This document shows, piece by piece, positions 1 to 5,682 of a stretch of DNA of 5,682 bases (its first letter is position 1; every line of letters begins with the position of its first letter). Below the pieces are notes generated by a model. That model was given only the letters and a program-made list of their open reading frames with translations, was not told where the DNA came from and did not search any database. The DNA is taken from the NCBI RefSeq assembly GCF_003334785.1, contig NZ_QOWV01000042.1; one strand, given 5' to 3'. The DNA comes from Escherichia coli (lineage in GTDB: Bacteria > Pseudomonadota > Gammaproteobacteria > Enterobacterales > Enterobacteriaceae). The translations under genes and the position numbers were made by a program.

Positions 1-73
1 GGTCATCGCCGAAACTGACGGTTTTCAGACTCTTGATCTCATCGTCCAGATAGCGGTTCAGCTCGAGGTGTTC
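1..73. repeat. One unit (missing its first 2 nt) of the 75-bp coding tandem repeat; the array continues beyond the left edge.
   Basis: ggtcatcgccgaaactgacggttttcagactcttgatctcatcgtccagatagcggttcagctcgaggtgttc differs at 2 of 73 positions from 5163..5235. Bases 74..~130 look like a degenerate further unit. Confidence 0.9.
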
Positions 74-229
74 ATAATCTTCACTGACGCTAAAACTCTT
101 AACATTTTGTAGCATCTTATATTCGTACTTCAGCTTCTCTATTAACTCATTACTTAAATCATCAAGAGCATCATGGTCATATTTCGATGACATCAGATGC
201 GATTTTTTAATCATAAATCTGCCATCCAT
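1..229 (-). CDS. Acidic 25-aa tandem-repeat protein, paralogue A. The start codon is inside the window and the 3' end runs off the left edge (76 codons visible).
   Basis: AGGAG at 240..236, a 6-nt spacer, then ATG at 229..227. This lies 13 nt downstream of the stop (245..243) of the PIN-like ORF on the same strand. Hand translation: MDGRFMIKKSHLMSSKYDHDALDDLSNELIEKLKYEYKMLQNVKSFSVSEDYEHLELNRYLDDEIKSLKTVSFGDD..., with no stop before the window edge. Bases 1..73 are one unit of the 75-bp repeat seen at 5101..5640. The ORF is absent from the ORF track, presumably because it is truncated by the edge. Confidence 0.65.
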   Translation of the reverse strand, partial: MDGRFMIKKSHLMSSKYDHDALDDLSNELIEKLKYEYKMLQNVKSFSVSEDYEHLELNRYLDDEIKSLKTVSFGDD

Positions 230-242
230 ATGATACTCCTTC

Positions 243-1493
243 TTACTCTGTTATTGATGAAAGGATTGAGCTCATCTTCTGAATAGAAGATAACTTTCCT
301 TTCATTAGAAGTCTAATTTTAGCCATTATCTCAGGATCTGTCGCAGATTCTAGCTTTTTAGATAGACCAGCAATTTCTGCCTTTTCTCTTTTTATTCTGT
401 TTTCTAGGAGTGCTCGGTGTTCACTGTTGCTTGTGTTACTTCCAGCTCCATACCCATTCCCTGTTGAAATGTTGAGGTTTTCGGTGTTTATTTTAAGATC
501 GAATGCGTTGTTTATATTTAAGATTAGTTCTTTTGTGTTTATTACATCAAAAAATTGAACGCTTGAGTTATTTAGCATTTCCTCTCTTAATATAGCGTGA
601 ACGCCTTTGTTTTCTCTATTTTCTTTATCTCTACCAACTTTAAATATGAAGTCATCTTTTGCATCATTAGTGATTAGGAAAACGTTTTTCGCACCTGTTG
701 ATGCGGCATGCTCTAGAGTTTCTTTCCATATGTAGAAATCACCATAAGCTCTTTGATAAGTAATGCCGTCATAAGAGAATATATTGTCTGGCTTTCCTAC
801 CTTGTCTGCGTCACAGAATCCAGGGGGCGTTTTTAATTCATACCTTGATTTACATTCAGCATCTAATCCATTAATGTATTCTTGGTCCTTTTTTACGCCT
901 ATTTTTCCAGAGAATATGTTGTCAATCCATTCTCTATGTATGTCTTTTGTATTTAACTCATCAATTGATTCATTGAGTTTTCCATACATATCCTCTAGTC
1001 CTGAGTTTAATAAATCAATGGATTTTTTTATTAACTCAGATACTTGTCTGTTTAGCCCTTCGTAATGCCTTGCTTTGGAGTTGTTGCATTTTTCTAATAG
1101 TTTTGATGAATAAGATAATAAATCAACAACAGGAGATGTTGTTGTTGATATCAAGTGTTTCTGATCGTCGATAACCCCTAATCTTCTTCTCTGATACTCC
1201 AACGCAGTAAAATAAGGGAGATATATATTTTCTCTTATCTGTTCTATTGATTTCTTTATCGCAGATATTGTTTCCTGGTTGTTTCTATATAGGTCTAATA
1301 TGACATTGGTGTCAAAAACAAATAATGTATCATCTGCCCTGTATATATCAGGATTGTCCTTTATGTTGCCTGTATAAAATCCTTTAAACATATCCCTCAT
1401 CGACATAAAAAAGCCCCTATTATTCATTTCTGTTTTGTTCTTTTCGTCAGTTGCTGACTCTTGTGTCAACATCAAAATCAATCGATCATGCAA
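243..1493 (-). CDS. PIN-like domain protein (putative metal-dependent nuclease, DUF4935-like pattern) with a C-terminal helical tail.
   Basis: This is the longest ORF in the window (416 codons). Motifs in order are FVFDTNVILDLY (D61), YLPYFTALEYQRRR (E99), PPGFCDADK, YGDFYIWKETLEHA (D252) and VFLITNDAKDDF (D277/D280/D281). These are followed by a low-complexity NISTGNGYGAGSNTSNS stretch and a roughly 55-aa Lys/Glu/Leu-rich tail. The true start is probably internal: ATG at 1406 (M30) has AGGGG at 1418..1414 with a 7-nt spacer, and ATG at 1427 (M23) is an alternative. The 1493 start lies only 9 nt from the RNAII -35 box and upstream of a perfect TTGACA at 1469..1464. Confidence 0.8.
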   Translation of the reverse strand: MHDRLILMLTQESATDEKNKTEMNNRGFFMSMRDMFKGFYTGNIKDNPDIYRADDTLFVFDTNVILDLYRNNQETISAIKKSIEQIRENIYLPYFTALEYQRRRLGVIDDQKHLISTTTSPVVDLLSYSSKLLEKCNNSKARHYEGLNRQVSELIKKSIDLLNSGLEDMYGKLNESIDELNTKDIHREWIDNIFSGKIGVKKDQEYINGLDAECKSRYELKTPPGFCDADKVGKPDNIFSYDGITYQRAYGDFYIWKETLEHAASTGAKNVFLITNDAKDDFIFKVGRDKENRENKGVHAILREEMLNNSSVQFFDVINTKELILNINNAFDLKINTENLNISTGNGYGAGSNTSNSEHRALLENRIKREKAEIAGLSKKLESATDPEIMAKIRLLMKGKLSSIQKMSSILSSITE

Positions 1494-1501
1494 ATGATCT
1501 C

Positions 1502-1530
1502 TTGAGATTCCTTTTTTCTACGCGTAATCT
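1502..1530 (+). promoter_or_regulatory. RNAII (primer) promoter.
   Basis: TTGAGA at 1502..1507, a 17-nt spacer, then TAATCT at 1525..1530. These are the same hexamers and spacing as the pBR322 RNAII promoter (TTGAGA-17-TAATCT). The expected start is near G1539. Confidence 0.7.
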
Positions 1531-1538
1531 TTCTTCCT

Positions 1539-1646
1539 GTAAACGAAAAAACCACCCTGGCAGGTGGTCTTTTCGAAGGTTAGATAATCCTGGCAGATTC
1601 TCTAACCGTGGTAACAGTCTTGTGCGAGACATGTCACCAAATCCGT
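1539..1646 (-). ncRNA. RNAI: RNAI antisense copy-number regulator (about 108 nt).
   Basis: The minus strand starts ACGGATTTGGT (pMB1: ACAGTATTTGGT), 6 nt after the TACACT -10 box. It ends in an ACCACC/GGTGGT hairpin (1551..1568) followed by a T6 run on the minus strand, at the same position as the pMB1 RNAI terminator. It is fully complementary to the RNAII 5' end. Confidence 0.75.
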
Positions 1647-1652
1647 CCTTTC

Positions 1653-1682
1653 AGTGTAGCCTCACTCAGGCCACCACTTCAA
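1653..1682 (-). promoter_or_regulatory. RNAI promoter.
   Basis: On the minus strand: TTGAAG (1682..1677), a 17-nt spacer, then TACACT (1658..1653). These hexamers are identical to the pBR322 RNAI promoter as I recall it. Confidence 0.65.
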
Positions 1683-2299
1683 GAACTCTCGATACATCTC
1701 TCGCACATCCTGTTTACCAGTGGCCGTTGCCAATGGCGATTAGTCGTGTCTTTTCGGGTTGGACTCAAGACGATAGTTACCGGATAAGGCGCAGCGGTCG
1801 GACTGAACGGGGGGTTCGTGCATACAGTCCAGCTTGGAGCGAACTGCCTACCCGGAACTGAGTGTCAGGCGTGGAATGAGAAACCGCGGCCATAACAGCG
1901 GAATGACACCGGTAAACCGAAAGGCAGGAACAGGAGAGCGCACGAGGGAGCCACCAGGGGGAAACGCCTGGTATCTTTATAGTCCTGTCGGGTTTCGCCA
2001 CCTCTGACTTGAGCGTCGATTTTTGTGATGCTCGTCAGGGGGGCGGAGCCTATGGAAAAAGCGCCTGCGGCGCGGCCTTTTTCGGGGTTTCCGTTTTTGC
2101 GCACATGTTCTTTCCCGGGTTATCCCCGGATTCTGTGGATAACTGTGTTACCGTTTTTGTGTGAGTCAGTACCGCTCGCCGCAGCCGAACGACCGAGCGT
2201 AGCGAGTCAGTGAGCGAGGAAGCGGAAGAGCGCCGGAAGCTACATTTTCTCCTTACGCATCTGTGCGGCATTTCACACCCGGCATGGTGCACTTTTCAT

Positions 2300-2400
2300 A
2301 CCATCCGCACTGATGCTGCATGAGTAAGCCAGTATACACTCCGCTATCGCTACGTGACTGGGTCATGGCTGCGCCCCGACACCCGCAAGGTCAACGGCCT
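2300..2400 (-). other. oriT: bom/oriT (basis of mobility) with the ColE1-type nic site.
   Basis: The minus strand reads ...gcgatagcggagtgtatactgg|cttactcatg. The ColE1/pBR322 nic motif CTGG/CTTA falls at 2332..2325, with the nic between 2329 and 2328. The flanking gtgactgggtcatggctgcgccccgacaccc is near-identical to the pBR322 bom region. Confidence 0.75.
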
Positions 2401-2477
2401 GACGCGCCCTGACGGGCTTGTCTGCTCCCGGCATCCGCTCACAGGCAAGCTGTGACCGTCTCCGGGAGCTGTATGTG

Positions 2478-2669
2478 TCAGAGGTTTTCACCGTCATCAC
2501 CGAAACGCGCGAGGCAGCTGCGGTAAAGCTCATCAGCGTGGTCGTGAAGCGATTCACAGATGTCTGCCTGTTCATCCGCGTCCAGTTCGTTGAGTTTCTC
2601 CAGCAGCGTTAATGTCTGGCTTCTGATAAAGCGGGCCATGTTAAGGGCGGTTTTTTCCTGTTTAGTCAC
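2478..2669 (-). CDS. rop: Rop/Rom RNA one modulator (copy-number control).
   Basis: The 63-aa product MTKQEKTALNMARFIRSQTLTLLEKLNELDADEQADICESLHDHADELYRSCLARFGDDGENL matches the pMB1/ColE1 Rop sequence as I remember it. It has a GTG start at 2669..2667 and GGAGG at 2679..2675 with a 5-nt spacer. Confidence 0.95.
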   Translation of the reverse strand: MTKQEKTALNMARFIRSQTLTLLEKLNELDADEQADICESLHDHADELYRSCLARFGDDGENL

Positions 2670-2710
2670 TGATGCCTCCGTGTAAGGGGGGATTTCTGTT
2701 CATGGGGGTA

Positions 2711-3058
2711 ATGATACCGATGAAACGCGAGAGGATGCTCACCATACGGGTTACTGATGATGAACATGCCCGGTTACTGGAACGCTGTGAGGGTAAACAA
2801 CTGGCGGTATGGATGCGGCGGGTCTGCCTGGGTGAGCCGGTTGCCCGTTCCGGGAAGCTGCCGACACTGGCACCGCCGTTACTGCGCCAGCTGGCTGCCA
2901 TCGGGAATAACCTGAATCAGACAGCGAGGAAGGTGAACAGCGGGCAGTGGTCTTCCGGCGACCGGGTTCAGGTGGTGGCCGCACTGATGGCCATCGAGAG
3001 AGAGTTGCGCAGCTTACGGCAGGTCGTCAGGGGACAGGGAGCGCGGGATGATAGTTAA
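2711..3058 (+). CDS. mbeC: MbeC/MobC-type relaxosome accessory protein (ribbon-helix-helix).
   Basis: MLTIRVTDDEHARLLERCEGKQLAVWMRRVCLGEPVARSGKLPTLAPPLLRQLAAIGNNLNQTARKVNSG... is ColE1/pMB1 MbeC, whose 5' part survives in pBR322 next to rop. The ORF is open from 2672. In-frame ATGs occur at 2672, 2702, 2711, 2720 and 2735, so the start is uncertain. I chose 2711 because it gives about 115 aa. The stop TAA at 3056..3058 overlaps the mbeA start. Confidence 0.85.
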   Translation: MIPMKRERMLTIRVTDDEHARLLERCEGKQLAVWMRRVCLGEPVARSGKLPTLAPPLLRQLAAIGNNLNQTARKVNSGQWSSGDRVQVVAALMAIERELRSLRQVVRGQGARDDS

Positions 3059-3425
3059 GTTTCATGCCAGGGGGAAAGGTGGTGGCAGTGGTCCGGTTGA
3101 TTACCTTCTGGGAAGGGAGCGTAACCGGGAAGGTGCAACGGTACTGCAGGGTAACCCGGAAGAAGTCCGGGAACTCATCGATGCCACGCCATTTGCGAAG
3201 AAATATACGTCCGGTGTTCTGTCGTTCGCGGAGAAGGAACTGCCGCCGGGAGGACGTGAAAAAGTTATGGCGAGCTTTGAGCGTGTACTGATGCCCGGTC
3301 TTGAAAAAAATCAGTACAGCATCCTGTGGGTGGAGCACCAGGACAAGGGACGGCTTGAGCTGAATTTTGTCATTCCGAACATGGAGCTACAGAGCGGAAA
3401 ACGCCTCCAGCCGTACTACGACCGG

Positions 3426-3477
3426 GCAGACAGGCCGAGAATTGATGCCTGGCAGACAGGCCGAGAATTGATGCCTG
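3426..3477. repeat. Perfect 2 x 26-bp tandem duplication inside mbeA.
   Basis: gcagacaggccgagaattgatgcctg occurs at 3426..3451 and again at 3452..3477. It is followed by gcagac (3478..3483), so the unit is bounded by 6-bp GCAGAC microhomology. Confidence 0.95.
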
Positions 3478-3761
3478 GCAGACGCTGGTTAATCACCATT
3501 ACGGGCTGCATGACCCCAACGCCCCGGAGAACCGCCGGATACTGACTCTCTCTGATAACCTGCCGGAAACGAAACAGGCGCTTGCAGAGAGCGTCACACG
3601 CGGGATAGACGCTCTTTATCATGTCGGGGAGATAAAAGGCCGTCAGGATGTGATTCAGGCGCTCACAGAGGCAGGGCTTGAAGTGGTCAGGGTGACGCGA
3701 AGCAGTATCAGCATTGCAGACCCGAACGGTGGGAAGAATATCAGGCTGAAAGGAGCATTTT

Positions 3762-4292
3762 ATGAGCAATCTTTTACAGACGGGCGCGGAGTTCGAGAAA
3801 AAGCTGAAAGAGAGAGCCGAATCTACAGAGACAATGCTGAACGACGAGTTCAGGAAGCTCGAAGAATCTGTAAACAGGGAGCTGACCTCAAACGAATCTT
3901 TAATCAGGAACGCTATCAACGACCATACAGCAGCCCTGAAAGAACTTCTGGAGAGGTATCAGAAAACGACCGTCAGCACGATGGACACACACTGGCAAAC
4001 CGTGCTGAAAATGAGCGTGAAACGCTGGCTGTGGCTGATTATCGTCTCAGTACTGATGTTTGCCACGACCGGGAGTCTGCTGTGGTACCAGGGCATGAAG
4101 ATAAACGAGAATATGAATATTCTCCGCGAGCAGAAAGAGAGTCTGGAGAAGCTGAACGCGAAGACATGGGGCGTGCGTTATCACGAGGACAGCAACGGAC
4201 GTTTTCTGGTGTTGCCGAAGGGGATGAAAGCCGAAACGAACTGGACGAAGGACAACGGCAAACTGAACGCAGTGAGACTGGTGCAGGAGTGA
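3762..4292 (+). CDS. mbeB: MbeB mobilisation protein, nested out of frame within mbeA.
   Basis: A 176-aa ORF with AGGAG at 3751..3755 and a 6-nt spacer before the ATG. It has one hydrophobic segment (WLWLIIVSVLMFATTGSLLWY). Its position and size match ColE1 mbeB. Confidence 0.8.
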   Translation: MSNLLQTGAEFEKKLKERAESTETMLNDEFRKLEESVNRELTSNESLIRNAINDHTAALKELLERYQKTTVSTMDTHWQTVLKMSVKRWLWLIIVSVLMFATTGSLLWYQGMKINENMNILREQKESLEKLNAKTWGVRYHEDSNGRFLVLPKGMKAETNWTKDNGKLNAVRLVQE

Positions 4293-4298
4293 CAGAGC

Positions 4299-4532
4299 AT
4301 GACGGAGCTGGAAAGACATTTGCTGAACGCCTTAGAGCAACTGCAACAGGACTATATGCAGCGGCTGAACGAATGGGAGAGCGCCTTCGTGGAATTGCAG
4401 AAAATGTTTTCGCTTACGCAACGGGACAACGCGATGCTGAACGAGCGGGTCATGCAGTTGAGTCAGCAGGTGCAGCACTTGAGCGAGCGGACAGAACGCT
4501 TGAGCCAGTTATACAGCGAGAACAGGAGATAA
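4299..4532 (+). CDS. mbeD: MbeD mobilisation/entry-exclusion-associated protein, nested within mbeA.
   Basis: A 77-aa ORF starting 7 nt after mbeB, with AGGAG at 4285..4289. It is helical and heptad-rich (LLNALEQLQQDYMQRLNEWESAFVELQ). Its position matches ColE1 mbeD. Confidence 0.8.
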   Translation: MTELERHLLNALEQLQQDYMQRLNEWESAFVELQKMFSLTQRDNAMLNERVMQLSQQVQHLSERTERLSQLYSENRR

Positions 4533-4562
4533 GGGACGAACGGCTGATACAGGAGCGCGAAC

Positions 4563-4760
4563 ATGCGTTATCCCTGGAGCGTGAGCGCCAGCCGGAAATA
4601 CAGGAACGCACACTGGATGGCCCTTCGCTGGGATGGTAATCAGAGACAGGCTAAAATGTTGTCAGCGCGTTTCCGGTGCATTTTTTGGGATAATGGTTGG
4701 TTCGGGGGCACCGGGAACGCGCTTCAGTCAGACCTTGCTGAAAACACAGGAACGCGTTAA
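4563..4760 (+). CDS. Small Trp/Arg-rich ORF overlapping the mbeA 3' end (possible mbeE-like ORF; not recognised).
   Basis: AGGAG at 4551..4555 with a 7-nt spacer before ATG 4563 is a good ribosome-binding site. The 65-aa product has no motif I recognise. ColE1 is described as having a fifth small mbe ORF, but I cannot verify correspondence. Confidence 0.25.
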   Translation: MRYPWSVSASRKYRNAHWMALRWDGNQRQAKMLSARFRCIFWDNGWFGGTGNALQSDLAENTGTR

Positions 4761-4849
4761 AACGCATACGGGCGCGATTCTGGTGTATCTTTTGTTGCTG
4801 TGTTTTGCCGTTATTGCCAGATCGCGCTCATTCCCCTGAATTTCTGTTT

Positions 4850-5086
4850 TTCCGCTCCGGTTCCGTCTTCTGCCTTTCCGAAAGTATGAAAAAAATCCGT
4901 TTCAGCAGTCTCTGGCTGGAAATTCCTGCGTGATTCACATGGCTGCATAGCTATGCATGTGGTTAAAATTTACCGGGTGCGATCGCGGCAGTTTTTCGGG
5001 TGGTTTGTTGCCATTTTTACCTGTCTGCTGCCGTGATCGCACCGAACGCGTTTCAGTGGTGCGTACAATGGGATGTTATGGTAAAT
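4850..5086 (+). other. cer: cer-type multimer resolution site (accessory sequences plus XerC/XerD core).
   Basis: The core at 5058..5086 is GGTGCGTACAA-tgggatg-TTATGGTAAAT. Both 11-bp arms are identical to ColE1 cer as I recall it. A 14-bp perfect palindrome TGCATAGCTATGCA (4944..4957) lies about 100 bp upstream, where the cer ArgR box sits. The left boundary is approximate. Confidence 0.75.
4975..5060 (+). ncRNA. rcd: Possible Rcd-like checkpoint RNA encoded inside cer.
   Basis: A -10-like TAAAAT lies at 4964..4969. A long stem pairs gcgatcgcggcag (4979..4991) with ctgccgtgatcgc (5028..5040), 12 Watson-Crick pairs plus one G-U. The segment resembles the ColE1 cer/Rcd region from memory. Direction and ends are not established from this sequence. 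Confidence 0.3.
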
Positions 5087-5100
5087 GGCTCTCGCTAGTT

Positions 5101-5640
5101 TCATTTAATTTTTAAATTACGAAGCTCATTATCCAGATAGCGATTCAGCTCGAGGAGCTCGTGGTCATCGCCGAAACTGACGGTTTTCAGGCTCTTGATC
5201 TCATCGTCCAGATAGCGGTTCAGCTCGAGGAGTTCGTGGTCATCGCCGAAACTGACGGTTTTCAGACTCATGATCTCATCGTCCAGATAGCGGTTCAGTT
5301 CCCGGAGTTCGTGGTCATTGCCGAAACTGACGGTTTTCAGGCTCTTGATCTCATCGTCCAGATAGCGGTTCAGTTTCCGGAGCTCGTGGTCATCGCCGAA
5401 ACTGACGGTTTTCAGACTCATGATCTCATCGTCCAGATAGCGGTTCAGCTCGAGGAGCTCGTGGTCATCGCCGAAACTGACGGTTTTCAGGCTCATGATC
5501 TCATCGTCCAGATAGCGGTTCAGTTTCCGGAGCTCGAGGTCATCGCCGAAATTGACGGTTTTCAGACTCATGATCTCATCGTCCAGATAGCGGTTCAGAT
5601 AGAGGAGATCATAGTCATCGCAGACGCTAACAGTATTAAC
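5101..5640. repeat. 75-bp tandem repeat array: six near-perfect units at 5161, 5236, 5311, 5386, 5461 and 5536, plus degenerate flanking units.
   Basis: The period was verified by coordinates: gtggtcatcgcc recurs at 5161, 5236, 5386 and 5461, with the one-mismatch variant gtggtcattgcc at 5311. Units differ at only a few positions each. The variants are combinations of cagactcatgatc versus caggctcttgatc, and cagctcgaggag versus cagtt(t/c)ccggag. Confidence 0.95.
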
Positions 5641-5652
5641 AATATTTATCAA
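5101..5652 (-). CDS. Acidic 25-aa tandem-repeat protein, paralogue B (repeat domain and C-terminus). The homologous N-terminal region continues upstream past an in-frame TAG and off the right edge.
   Basis: The ORF contains seven repeat units of consensus LNRYLDDEI(M/K)SLKTVSFGDDHEL(LE/RK) and ends ...LNRYLDNELRNLKIK, with TGA at 5103..5101. The track start at 5652 is a TTG directly after TAG 5655..5653. No SD precedes it, so it is probably not a real start. It may be a disrupted gene, so pseudogene status is possible. Confidence 0.55.
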   Translation of the reverse strand: MINIVNTVSVCDDYDLLYLNRYLDDEIMSLKTVNFGDDLELRKLNRYLDDEIMSLKTVSFGDDHELLELNRYLDDEIMSLKTVSFGDDHELRKLNRYLDDEIKSLKTVSFGNDHELRELNRYLDDEIMSLKTVSFGDDHELLELNRYLDDEIKSLKTVSFGDDHELLELNRYLDNELRNLKIK

Positions 5653-5682
5653 CTAGTAATCGTACATCATCAGCTCAATTAA

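Follow-up and report, generated by a model that had tools for sequence, protein, structure and literature searches.

The 5,682-nt stretch of Escherichia coli DNA analysed here (the window) is, judged by its sequence, a small mobilisable plasmid of the ColE1 type (MOB-HEN/MOBP5) whose oriT is canonical, and its cargo is a conserved, uncharacterised operon that encodes a predicted PIN_8 nuclease and a repeat protein. The explanation that we consider best, with a probability of about 75%, joins three parts: transfer polarity is that of canonical ColE1, the leading position of the cargo is given by the plasmid layout, and the cargo would serve in nuclease-based defence, competition or addiction.

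The backbone of the window (1491-5086) is common to thousands of ColE1-like plasmids. At least 5000 such plasmids matched the window, and the best of them aligned from ~1490 to ~5086, i.e., over the backbone only; homology to ColE1 plasmids stopped at 5086, the last position of a sequence that was matched to the ColE1 cer consensus and that we take to be a cer-like XerC/XerD core. GC content was 38.5% in the cargo versus 53.9% in the backbone, and the low-GC cargo is foreign. RNAII is ~555 nt long, and this length would place the start of replication near 2098. Plasmid RCS83_pIII of E. coli ECOR 10 (NZ_LT985292.1, 5912 bp) was 99.9% identical across window 1-5621 and shares both the PIN_8 gene and a duplication in the relaxase gene mbeA that is described below. 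The features of the window are collected in Table 1.

Table 1. Positions, strands and supporting evidence of the features assigned in the window.
Feature	Position	Strand	Evidence
Repeat-protein gene, 5' part	1..229	-	ATG at 229..227, 13 nt past the PIN_8 stop; runs off the window start
PIN_8 nuclease gene, first of the cargo operon	243..1472	-	strong Pfam PIN_8 match; ORF open to 1493
ColE1-type replication origin	1543..2100	+	RNAII primer region on plus; 91% identity to ColE1
RNAI	1645..1543	-	Rfam RF00106, 76.5 bits
oriT (bom) region	2180..2480	-	ColE1 oriT homology, 96% mean column identity
nic motif CTGG/CTTA	2325..2332	-	unique match; invariant versus ColE1 oriT
rop	2478..2669	-	Pfam Rop, E=7.6e-38
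mobC/mbeC, relaxosome accessory	2735..3058	+	Pfam MobC, E=6e-13, NikA-like; annotated in RCS83_pIII
mbeA relaxase, frameshifted	3048..4639	+	165-aa stub 3048-3545 plus C-terminal frame 3650-4639
Perfect 26-bp tandem duplication	3425..3476	+	frameshifts mbeA
mbeB	3762..4292	+	nested in mbeA; Pfam MbeB_N, E=1.6e-18
mbeD	4299..4532	+	nested in mbeA; Pfam MbeD_MobD, E=4.7e-35
Presumed cer-like XerC/XerD core, GGTGCGTACAA-TGGGATG-TTATGGTAAAT	5058..5086	+	backbone/cargo boundary, read in sequence
Repeat-protein gene, 3' part	5101..5682	-	6.6 copies of a 75-bp (25-aa) unit at 5125-5621
Anomalous 61-nt tail	5622-5682	-	diverged copy of 88-147 of the window; contains an in-frame TAG

The sequence CTGGCTTA, which contains the MbeA cleavage site in the ColE1 oriT (PMC5703827), was found at a single site of the window, 2332..2325 of the minus strand. 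Chance alone would yield 0.11 matches, with at least one match in 21 of 200 shuffled sequences, and the match taken alone is weak evidence for nic. Window 2180-2480 aligned with ColE1 (NC_001371) 1310-1615 at 96% mean column identity, and TAAGCCAGTATACACTCCGCTATCGCTACGTGACTGGGTCA was invariant in this alignment. Because of this homology and the published cleavage site, the nick is predicted between G2329 and C2328 of the minus strand; the nick site and the transferred strand of the ColE1 type were also described elsewhere (PMC9282650). By ColE1 homology and the same literature (PMC5703827, PMC9282650), it would be the minus strand that is transferred 5' to 3': the relaxase would nick between 2329 and 2328, and the replication origin would enter first, followed by the PIN_8 gene, the repeat-protein gene and finally the mob genes. 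The MbeA-family relaxase gene adjoins oriT on the last-transferred side. On the transferred strand, no inverted repeat was found 5' of the nick, where the predicted fold was no better than that of shuffled sequence (z=0.36). A preliminary description of this DNA had proposed the same nic motif, on the same strand and at the same position, together with transfer of the minus strand and this order of entry, all of which agree with the ColE1 alignment and the literature. The transfer polarity of ColE1 is already textbook knowledge, and a window that conforms to it adds little.

The relaxase gene itself is interrupted. Matches to the NCBIfam model relax_MbeA_E1 were split into positions 1-137 and 194-496 (E=1e-100 and 1e-122), and in silico deletion of one 26-bp copy restored an mbeA ORF of 521 aa. 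The 26-bp unit is present only once in four sibling plasmids (L006, L010, L012 and L014), and the intact 521-aa ORF was confirmed in three of them (L006, L010 and L014). Since the duplication interrupts the gene, the MbeA product of the window is probably inactive.

The preliminary description went on to draw a function from this geometry. It placed the cargo at 1-2329, in the leading region, and took this position as fitting an anti-defence role, with the acidic repeat protein as a DNA mimic; such a role would imply an establishment or anti-defence module whose place near the entering end was selected. The leading side was confirmed, but the repeat gene crosses the window end into 5101-5682. 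Leading regions are indeed enriched for anti-defence genes (PMC11541004), and the cargo does lie on the side that enters first. In ColE1-type plasmids, however, every cargo is leading: their one accessory slot is flanked by the cer/mob end and the RNAII promoter, oriT follows directly across oriV, and any occupant of the slot is therefore leading. In ColE1 itself the slot holds colicin E1, and in three inspected relatives it holds CfrBI restriction-modification with colicin V, AbiEii with PP2C, and a C5-methyltransferase with an HTH gene. The position of the cargo on the first-entering side is thus the standard layout of the ColE1 family and says nothing about cargo function. Conjugative transfer proceeds at ~750 nt/s, and a plasmid of 5.7 kb would enter as a whole in ~8 s; because of this short total time, first entry would gain seconds only and gives no meaningful head start.

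Orientation is more discriminating than position. By their coordinates, the two cargo genes are encoded on the minus strand, and the transferred strand is thus their sense strand, a caveat that the preliminary description had itself raised; transcription of the cargo would consequently be possible only after complementary-strand synthesis. Samuel et al. (2024, PMC11541004) found that the anti-defence, SSB, methyltransferase and toxin-antitoxin families of leading regions were all oriented for transcription from the T-strand, that an anti-CRISPR gene placed on the complementary strand of the F plasmid worked considerably less well, and that anti-defence enrichment extends through most of the first 30 ORFs counted from oriT. 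The transferred strand was not the template strand of the cargo in the window, in its ColE1-type siblings or on a MOBQ backbone. In every ColE1-type sibling where the motif was found, CTGGCTTA was on the plus strand when the PIN gene was set to plus, and on the Rep3/MOBQ plasmid L021 the PIN gene likewise lies on the same strand as an RSF1010-like TAAGTGCGCTCT motif. The position and orientation of the module relative to oriT are the same on two unrelated backbones, a constancy that would speak for selection near the entering end; the orientation is the one that was ineffective in the F-plasmid experiment. A late-acting establishment role, exerted after second-strand synthesis, may be compatible with this orientation. 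Among the anti-restriction, anti-CRISPR, SOS-inhibitor and SSB families, none matched either cargo protein in Pfam, NCBIfam, PHROGs or PADLOC. Samuel et al. list VapC-type PIN families in their supplementary tables, with nothing identifiable as PIN_8 or DUF4935. For small ColE1-type plasmids, all accessory genes are leading, and a statement that cargo lies in the leading region is not usable as functional evidence; it is the orientation of the genes that discriminates.

The repeat-protein gene is divided between the two ends of the window. Its 5' part (1..229) was identical to the corresponding part of RCS83_pIII, where it belongs to one intact ORF of 346 aa with 11 full 25-aa units and a degenerate terminal unit. 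Compared with RCS83_pIII, the array of the window (TRF period 75, 91% matches) is ~290 bp shorter, and the diverged 61-nt tail is present only in the window; the tail had no match in complete E. coli genomes or in viral, metagenome or genome contigs. A single repeat gene, encoding 346-371 aa, was found in RCS83_pIII and more than 10 sibling plasmids, and the plural "repeat genes" of the preliminary description is accordingly doubtful. Two separate genes, an 81-aa stub and a 183-aa ORF with a TTG start, were considered; a collapsed or broken array probably produced this appearance.

The repeat protein is moderately acidic (346 aa, pI 4.73, net charge -32, 84 D+E versus 52 K+R). This acidity would suit a DNA mimic, but the charge density is modest, with 52 K/R residues, and the classical DNA mimics Ocr and ArdA are probably more acidic. 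A homology search with the repeat protein returned no homologues, and its PADLOC-DB 2.0 search gave noise only. Matches to DUF7671, phage_HTJ and designed repeat proteins (Pfam, NCBIfam, PHROG and PDB) were rejected as spurious, because they were inflated by the repeats, contained no significant single stretch and differed completely between two homologous partners. An AF2 model from the single sequence (pLDDT 55) had one strand and one helix per repeat, and the top PDB matches of this low-confidence model in Foldseek were all LRR proteins (COI1, ribonuclease inhibitor, NLRP LRRs and Skp2), with a TMq of 0.62 for ribonuclease inhibitor 1a4y. No LRR sequence model in Pfam matched the protein, even at E<=10. 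The protein is weakly predicted to be LRR-like, a fold that differs from a DNA-shaped array of charges. A DNA mimic would, moreover, leave the neighbouring PIN_8 nuclease and its conserved acidic residues unexplained, and no Pfam, PHROG or PADLOC family annotated as anti-defence matched either protein. Taken together, the geometry of the preliminary description and its caveat about sense both hold, whereas the step from a leading position to a DNA mimic or anti-defence function is unsupported, because the slot is generic, entry would take ~8 s, the cargo has the sense orientation, anti-defence matches are lacking and mbeA is frameshifted by the 26-bp duplication; with the moderate acidity and the LRR-like low-confidence model added, we regard such a function as highly improbable.

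For the first gene of the cargo, homologues point to the ATG at 1406 as the possible true start, and the encoded protein keeps conserved acidic residues; the classification of PIN domains (Matelska et al. 2017, PMC5499597) gives "function unknown" for PIN_8. The exact PIN_8 protein was present in 155 blocks of public assemblies, chiefly on small plasmid-sized contigs, and had no match to any component model of PADLOC-DB 2.0. No convincing sigma-70 promoter was detected upstream of the gene, where a consensus scan gave site counts equal to those of shuffled sequences. The region 1370-1660, read by eye, contained weak promoter candidates only. Distant PIN_8 homologues are standalone genes; in a handful of loci, which amount to no statistical test, their neighbours are a nucleotidyltransferase and an S-4TM effector (CBASS-like) or Abi and DGQHR genes, or they belong to an array of small Vibrio genes on one strand or to a phage accessory region.

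A PIN (VapC-group) fold with conserved acidic residues, a partner gene 13 nt away and co-occurrence of both genes in all close relatives examined would also be expected of a classical toxin-antitoxin pair, in which a constitutively toxic PIN_8 RNase would be held in check by the acidic repeat protein as stoichiometric antitoxin, with stabilisation of the small plasmid as the sole outcome. Ribonuclease inhibitor provides a precedent for an RNase held by an acidic LRR-like inhibitor. On the other hand, homologues of 30-40% identity, including one on a 4.2-kb plasmid and one on a chromosome, have no partner, which implies that the nuclease is probably not lethal by itself, and the standalone state of the distant homologues implies that PIN_8 proteins do not require the repeat protein as an antitoxin. 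The partner is also unlike VapB-type antitoxins, being 346 aa long, repetitive and encoded downstream, with no DNA-binding domain found, and no toxin-antitoxin family in Pfam, PADLOC or NCBIfam matched. We therefore consider this strict form of addiction unlikely.

Comparison across plasmids supports a two-gene unit. Wherever the contig continues (ten contigs listed), PIN_8 is followed after 13 nt by an ORF without a Pfam match, and this ORF encoded the repeat protein in all three cases that were translated. The module is also present on an unrelated Rep3/MOBQ backbone: a Rep3/MobA_MobL plasmid encodes a 56%-identical PIN_8 followed by an acidic protein of 335 aa, which has a different 25-aa repeat but shares the core L-[SN]-R-x-L-D-D-E. 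These comparisons bear on a further alternative, that the 75-bp array works as an RNA, i.e., as a ToxI-like antitoxin or decoy of a type III toxin-antitoxin system, with the long ORF incidental. A tandem nucleotide array does adjoin the nuclease gene and is open on both strands, although the latter is usual for repeats. Across three module families, however, the repeat DNA is unrelated, whereas at the protein level the families share the repeat motif and, at the N-terminus, M-[ND]-[DE]-x-SFL; the repeat periods of 75, 75 and 78 nt are all multiples of three, the ORF opens 13 nt past the stop of the PIN gene and closes shortly beyond the array, and no Rfam model matched the array. An RNA function is hence scarcely credible.

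Of the readings considered, a nuclease-based defence, competition or addiction module, comparable to the other occupants of the slot, appears most likely for this operon. The repeat protein would then be a protein-binding regulator or sensor of the PIN_8 nuclease and not an early-expressed anti-defence factor. A more specific and tentative proposal, which we hold as possible but rather doubtful, is that the pair is an undescribed two-component system of unrelated small mobilisable plasmids, in which the nuclease would be controlled by an LRR-like solenoid through the sensing or sequestering of a protein, for anti-phage or anti-plasmid defence or, less likely, for establishment or anti-defence after entry. 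If this proposal were true, selection and not accident would account for the unvarying place and orientation of the pair relative to oriT. The PIN_8 and repeat-protein pair merits separate attention.

Several known systems resemble parts of this plasmid. VapC-group PIN nucleases have a VapC-like core fold and acidic active-site residues in common with the PIN_8 protein, which differs from them in its size of ~400 aa, a long helical insertion and a C-terminal helical hairpin, and which has no VapB-type antitoxin beside it in the window. The likeness of the 25-aa repeats to LRR solenoids of the ribonuclease-inhibitor-like and cysteine-containing types would consist in the one short strand and one helix that the low-confidence model predicts per unit; their core L-[SN]-R-x-L-D-D-E differs from the LxxLxLxxN signature of LRR proteins. 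Leading-region islands of F and IncI plasmids (ardA, psiB, ssb and Frpo promoters) lie on the first-entering side, as does the cargo of the window, but the orientation of that cargo is opposite to theirs, and the enrichment described for the first 30 ORFs compares with a replicon of only 5.7 kb (Samuel et al. 2024). The closest parallel is ColE1 (NC_001371), in which oriV, oriT, rop, mobC and mbeA with nested mbeB and mbeD follow in the identical order, with mbeA frameshifted by the 26-bp duplication in the window, unlike in ColE1. Both plasmids have RNAI and RNAII, an identical nic motif with identical flanking sequence, and a single accessory slot from the mob end to the RNAII promoter, which is occupied by the colicin E1, immunity, lysis and exclusion genes in ColE1 and by the PIN_8 and repeat-protein operon in the window.

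The window is a small ColE1-type plasmid of 5682 bases, in which, from the position of RNAI, RNAII begins at about 1543 of the plus strand, with the origin at about 2100. Its nearest record is RCS83_pIII of E. coli ECOR 10 (NZ_LT985292.1, 5912 bp, circular), which is 99.9% identical to window 1-5621. The cargo, which comprises a PIN_8 nuclease gene and a repeat-protein gene starting 13 nt past its end, has a GC content of 38.5% versus 53.9% for the backbone. The XerC/XerD core, presumed to be cer-like, is the exact end of homology to other ColE1 plasmids and forms one edge of the accessory slot.

Features of the window, and partners of diverged PIN_8 homologues in other public records
Feature	Position	Strand	Basis or description
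RNAI	1645..1543	minus	Rfam, 76.5 bits
rop	2669..2478	minus	
mobC/mbeC	2735-3058	plus	Pfam and NCBIfam
MbeA relaxase gene	from 3048	plus	Pfam and NCBIfam
mbeB	3762-4292	plus	Pfam and NCBIfam
mbeD	4299-4532	plus	Pfam and NCBIfam
PIN_8 gene	1472..243	minus	PF18476, E=1.4e-41
Repeat gene	start 229, across window start into 5682..5101	minus	75-bp repeats
XerC/XerD core, presumed cer-like	5058-5086		GGTGCGTACAA-TGGGATG-TTATGGTAAAT
Partner in L022	1731-2738		acidic, different tandem repeats
Partner in L025	4851-5240		acidic, different tandem repeats
Partner in L026	1845-2177		acidic, different tandem repeats
Partner in L029	2595-2807		acidic, different tandem repeats

The ColE1 nick motif CTGGCTTA occurs once in the window, on the minus strand at 2332..2325, where the preliminary description had placed it. 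As a bare 8-mer, 0.11 chance matches are expected, and at least one was found in 21 of 200 shuffles; the match alone is little proof, and sequence context settles the nick site. Alignment of ColE1 1310-1615 with window 2180-2480 gave 96% mean column identity, with the block TAAGCCAGTATACACTCCGCTATCGCTACGTGACTGGGTCA of the oriT invariant, confirming both the strand and the position. The relaxase cleavage site has been located within CTGGCTTA of ColE1 oriT (PMC5703827), and the strand that is nicked is complementary to the one drawn (PMC9282650, Fig. 3 legend). On the basis of this homology and these two reports, the nick on the minus strand separates G2329 from C2328. A search 5' of the nick for an inverted repeat or hairpin, as an independent strand signature, found nothing significant. 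The relaxase stays bound to the 5' end and transfer proceeds 5' to 3', so that the minus strand would be transferred and the order of entry would be origin, PIN_8 gene, repeat gene and mob genes, the mbe genes last, as had been correctly deduced from the nick and the gene order. By distance from the nick, the origin falls in the initial 800 nt, the PIN_8 gene at 856 to 2085 nt and the repeat gene up to ~2900 nt; mbeD, mbeB, mbeA and mobC follow in that order at 3500 to 5300 nt.

In mbeA, a 26-bp sequence (GGCAGACAGGCCGAGAATTGATGCCT) is perfectly duplicated in tandem at window 3425-3476; this shifts the reading frame and leaves a 165-aa stub, and deletion of one copy in silico restores a 521-aa ORF. 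The duplication is also present in RCS83_pIII and L011, and a single copy is found in the sibling plasmids L006, L010, L012 (5886 bp, i.e., 5912 minus 26) and L014; for L006, L010 and L014, the relaxase ORF was confirmed to be intact at 521 aa. Judged from this frameshift, the window plasmid probably cannot mobilise itself without complementation or reversion of the duplication, and such reversion could occur by slippage.

The cargo had been described as confined to 1-2329, but the repeat gene runs on across the window start. The plural 'repeat genes' is also doubtful, with a single ORF in RCS83_pIII (346 aa, 11 complete 25-aa units followed by a degenerate last one) and one gene of 346 or 371 aa in sibling plasmids. 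Approximately 290 bp of the repeat array is missing from the window. The final 61 nt repeat window 88-147 in diverged form, with substitutions only and TAG in place of AAG, and comparison of 5560-5682 with 25-147 showed that the window ends in a divergent duplicate of the repeat gene's 5' coding portion with this in-frame TAG. No relative and no collection searched contained the 61-nt tail; it is either a real partial paralogue or the mark of a record broken or collapsed inside the repeat array. The 75-bp repeats, read in antisense, account for a 173-aa plus-strand ORF at 5161-5682, which is probably not a gene. Three public 'plasmid' records bearing the cassette, namely L003 (K. variicola CP044052), L004 and L005 (E. 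coli FDAARGOS_1248, CP069547 and CP069548), are linear pieces that end in the repeat array, and the latter two (5915 bp together) are probably one plasmid split in two. In L006 (GCA_025279975.1, a 12.6-kb contig), a Tn3-family transposase and another rop gene appear to be joined to the PIN_8/repeat ColE1 plasmid, an arrangement that suggests a cointegrate or a transposon insertion.

The two cargo genes form an uncharacterised conserved pair. The PIN_8 family is entered as 'function unknown' in the PIN classification (PMC5499597). Across 37 aligned homologues, residues D54, E92, D245 and D274 do not vary, and the AlphaFold model (pLDDT 82) has a PIN core, a long insertion that is helical, and a helical hairpin at the C terminus. 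The protein matches the uncharacterised phage family phrog_9788, and nothing in PADLOC. An identical protein occurs in 155 blocks of public assemblies, on contigs representing several different mob backbones; wherever the contig continues (ten contigs shown), an ORF without a Pfam hit lies 13 nt downstream, and it was the repeat protein in all three translated. On other small plasmid-like contigs, each homologue of 56-76% identity precedes an acidic protein that begins M-[ND]-[DE]-x-SFL, with family-specific 25- or 26-aa repeats sharing the core L-[SN]-R-x-L-D-D-E; most of these contigs (L022, L025, L026, L029) break inside the repeat arrays. The repeat periods are 75, 75 and 78 nt and the DNA sequences are unrelated, which points to selection on the protein and argues against reading the repeats as an RNA array. 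A low-confidence single-sequence model of the window's 183-aa ORF (pLDDT 55) has one short strand and one helix per repeat, and its best PDB matches are all leucine-rich-repeat (LRR) proteins: COI1, ribonuclease inhibitor (TMq 0.62), NLRP proteins, Skp2 and RanGAP. No LRR sequence model matches the repeat protein, and hence an LRR-like solenoid is suggested only tentatively by the modelling.

Distant PIN_8 homologues (30-40% identity) are single genes, found beside a nucleotidyltransferase and S-4TM effector gene (a CBASS-like pair) and beside Abi and DGQHR genes. Others lie in a Vibrio array of small genes on one strand, in a phage accessory region or on a chromosome, and one is the sole obvious cargo of a Psychrobacter plasmid of 4.2 kb. 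A classical toxin-antitoxin pair is a weaker variant for the cargo, because related PIN_8 genes occur without a partner. We favor a nuclease-based defence, competition or addiction module, as is usual in this slot, in which the repeat protein may be a protein-binding regulator or sensor of the nuclease. The cargo operon shares its strand with RNAI and starts ~50-140 nt past the RNAI terminator; its transcription meets the unidirectional ColE1 replication fork head-on. Window 1400-1545 yielded no good sigma-70 promoter on the minus strand, and RNAI read-through is thus conceivable.

The location of the cargo on the leading side is ordinary ColE1-family architecture. Matches to the window in PLSDB include at least 5000 ColE1-like plasmids, the best of them aligning from ~1490 to ~5086, the backbone; everything else is held in the slot between the cer-like core and the RNAII promoter. 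Because oriT lies directly beside oriV, with mob on the far side, any occupant of this slot is 'leading'. Relatives carry there a CfrBI-family restriction-modification system and a colicin V-type bacteriocin, an AbiEii toxin and a PP2C phosphatase, or a cytosine methyltransferase and an HTH regulator, and ColE1 carries colicin E1 with lysis and exclusion genes; these occupants are defence or competition genes, not anti-defence genes. Conjugative transfer proceeds at roughly 750 nt/s, so all 5682 nt would be inside in ~8 s, and the cargo would precede the mob genes by a few seconds at most.

The transferred strand (T-strand) is the sense strand of both cargo genes and hence cannot be their template; the operon would be expressed only after complementary-strand synthesis. 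This shared sense, raised earlier as a caveat, is decisive rather than minor, both genes and the nicked strand being minus. CTGGCTTA is likewise on the strand of the PIN and repeat genes in the ColE1-type siblings L006, L007 and L009-L015, a set with three or more different MbeA variants. On L021, an unrelated Rep3/MobA_MobL plasmid, the strand that holds the module also carries an inverted repeat followed by TAAGTGCGCTCT, and this motif agrees with the RSF1010-type nick consensus at 11 of its 12 positions. The leading-side position therefore carries no functional information on the cargo. The proposal that it fits an early anti-defence module, with the repeat protein as a DNA mimic, draws on that position and on the moderate acidity of the protein (pI 4.73, 84 D+E versus 52 K+R); with a generic slot, a trivial gain in time and the wrong orientation, it is unsupported and very improbable. 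The PIN_8 and repeat-protein module merits testing in its own right.

In large conjugative elements, leading enrichment extends over most of the first 30 ORFs from oriT (PMC11541004). Samuel et al. reported, for the 300 most prevalent leading-enriched families, that anti-defence, methyltransferase, SSB and toxin-antitoxin families were all oriented for transcription from the T-strand, and that an anti-CRISPR was markedly less effective when encoded by the complementary leading-region strand (PMC11541004). Whereas the leading-enriched anti-defence families of that study can be transcribed from the T-strand, the cargo genes of the window have the opposite orientation.
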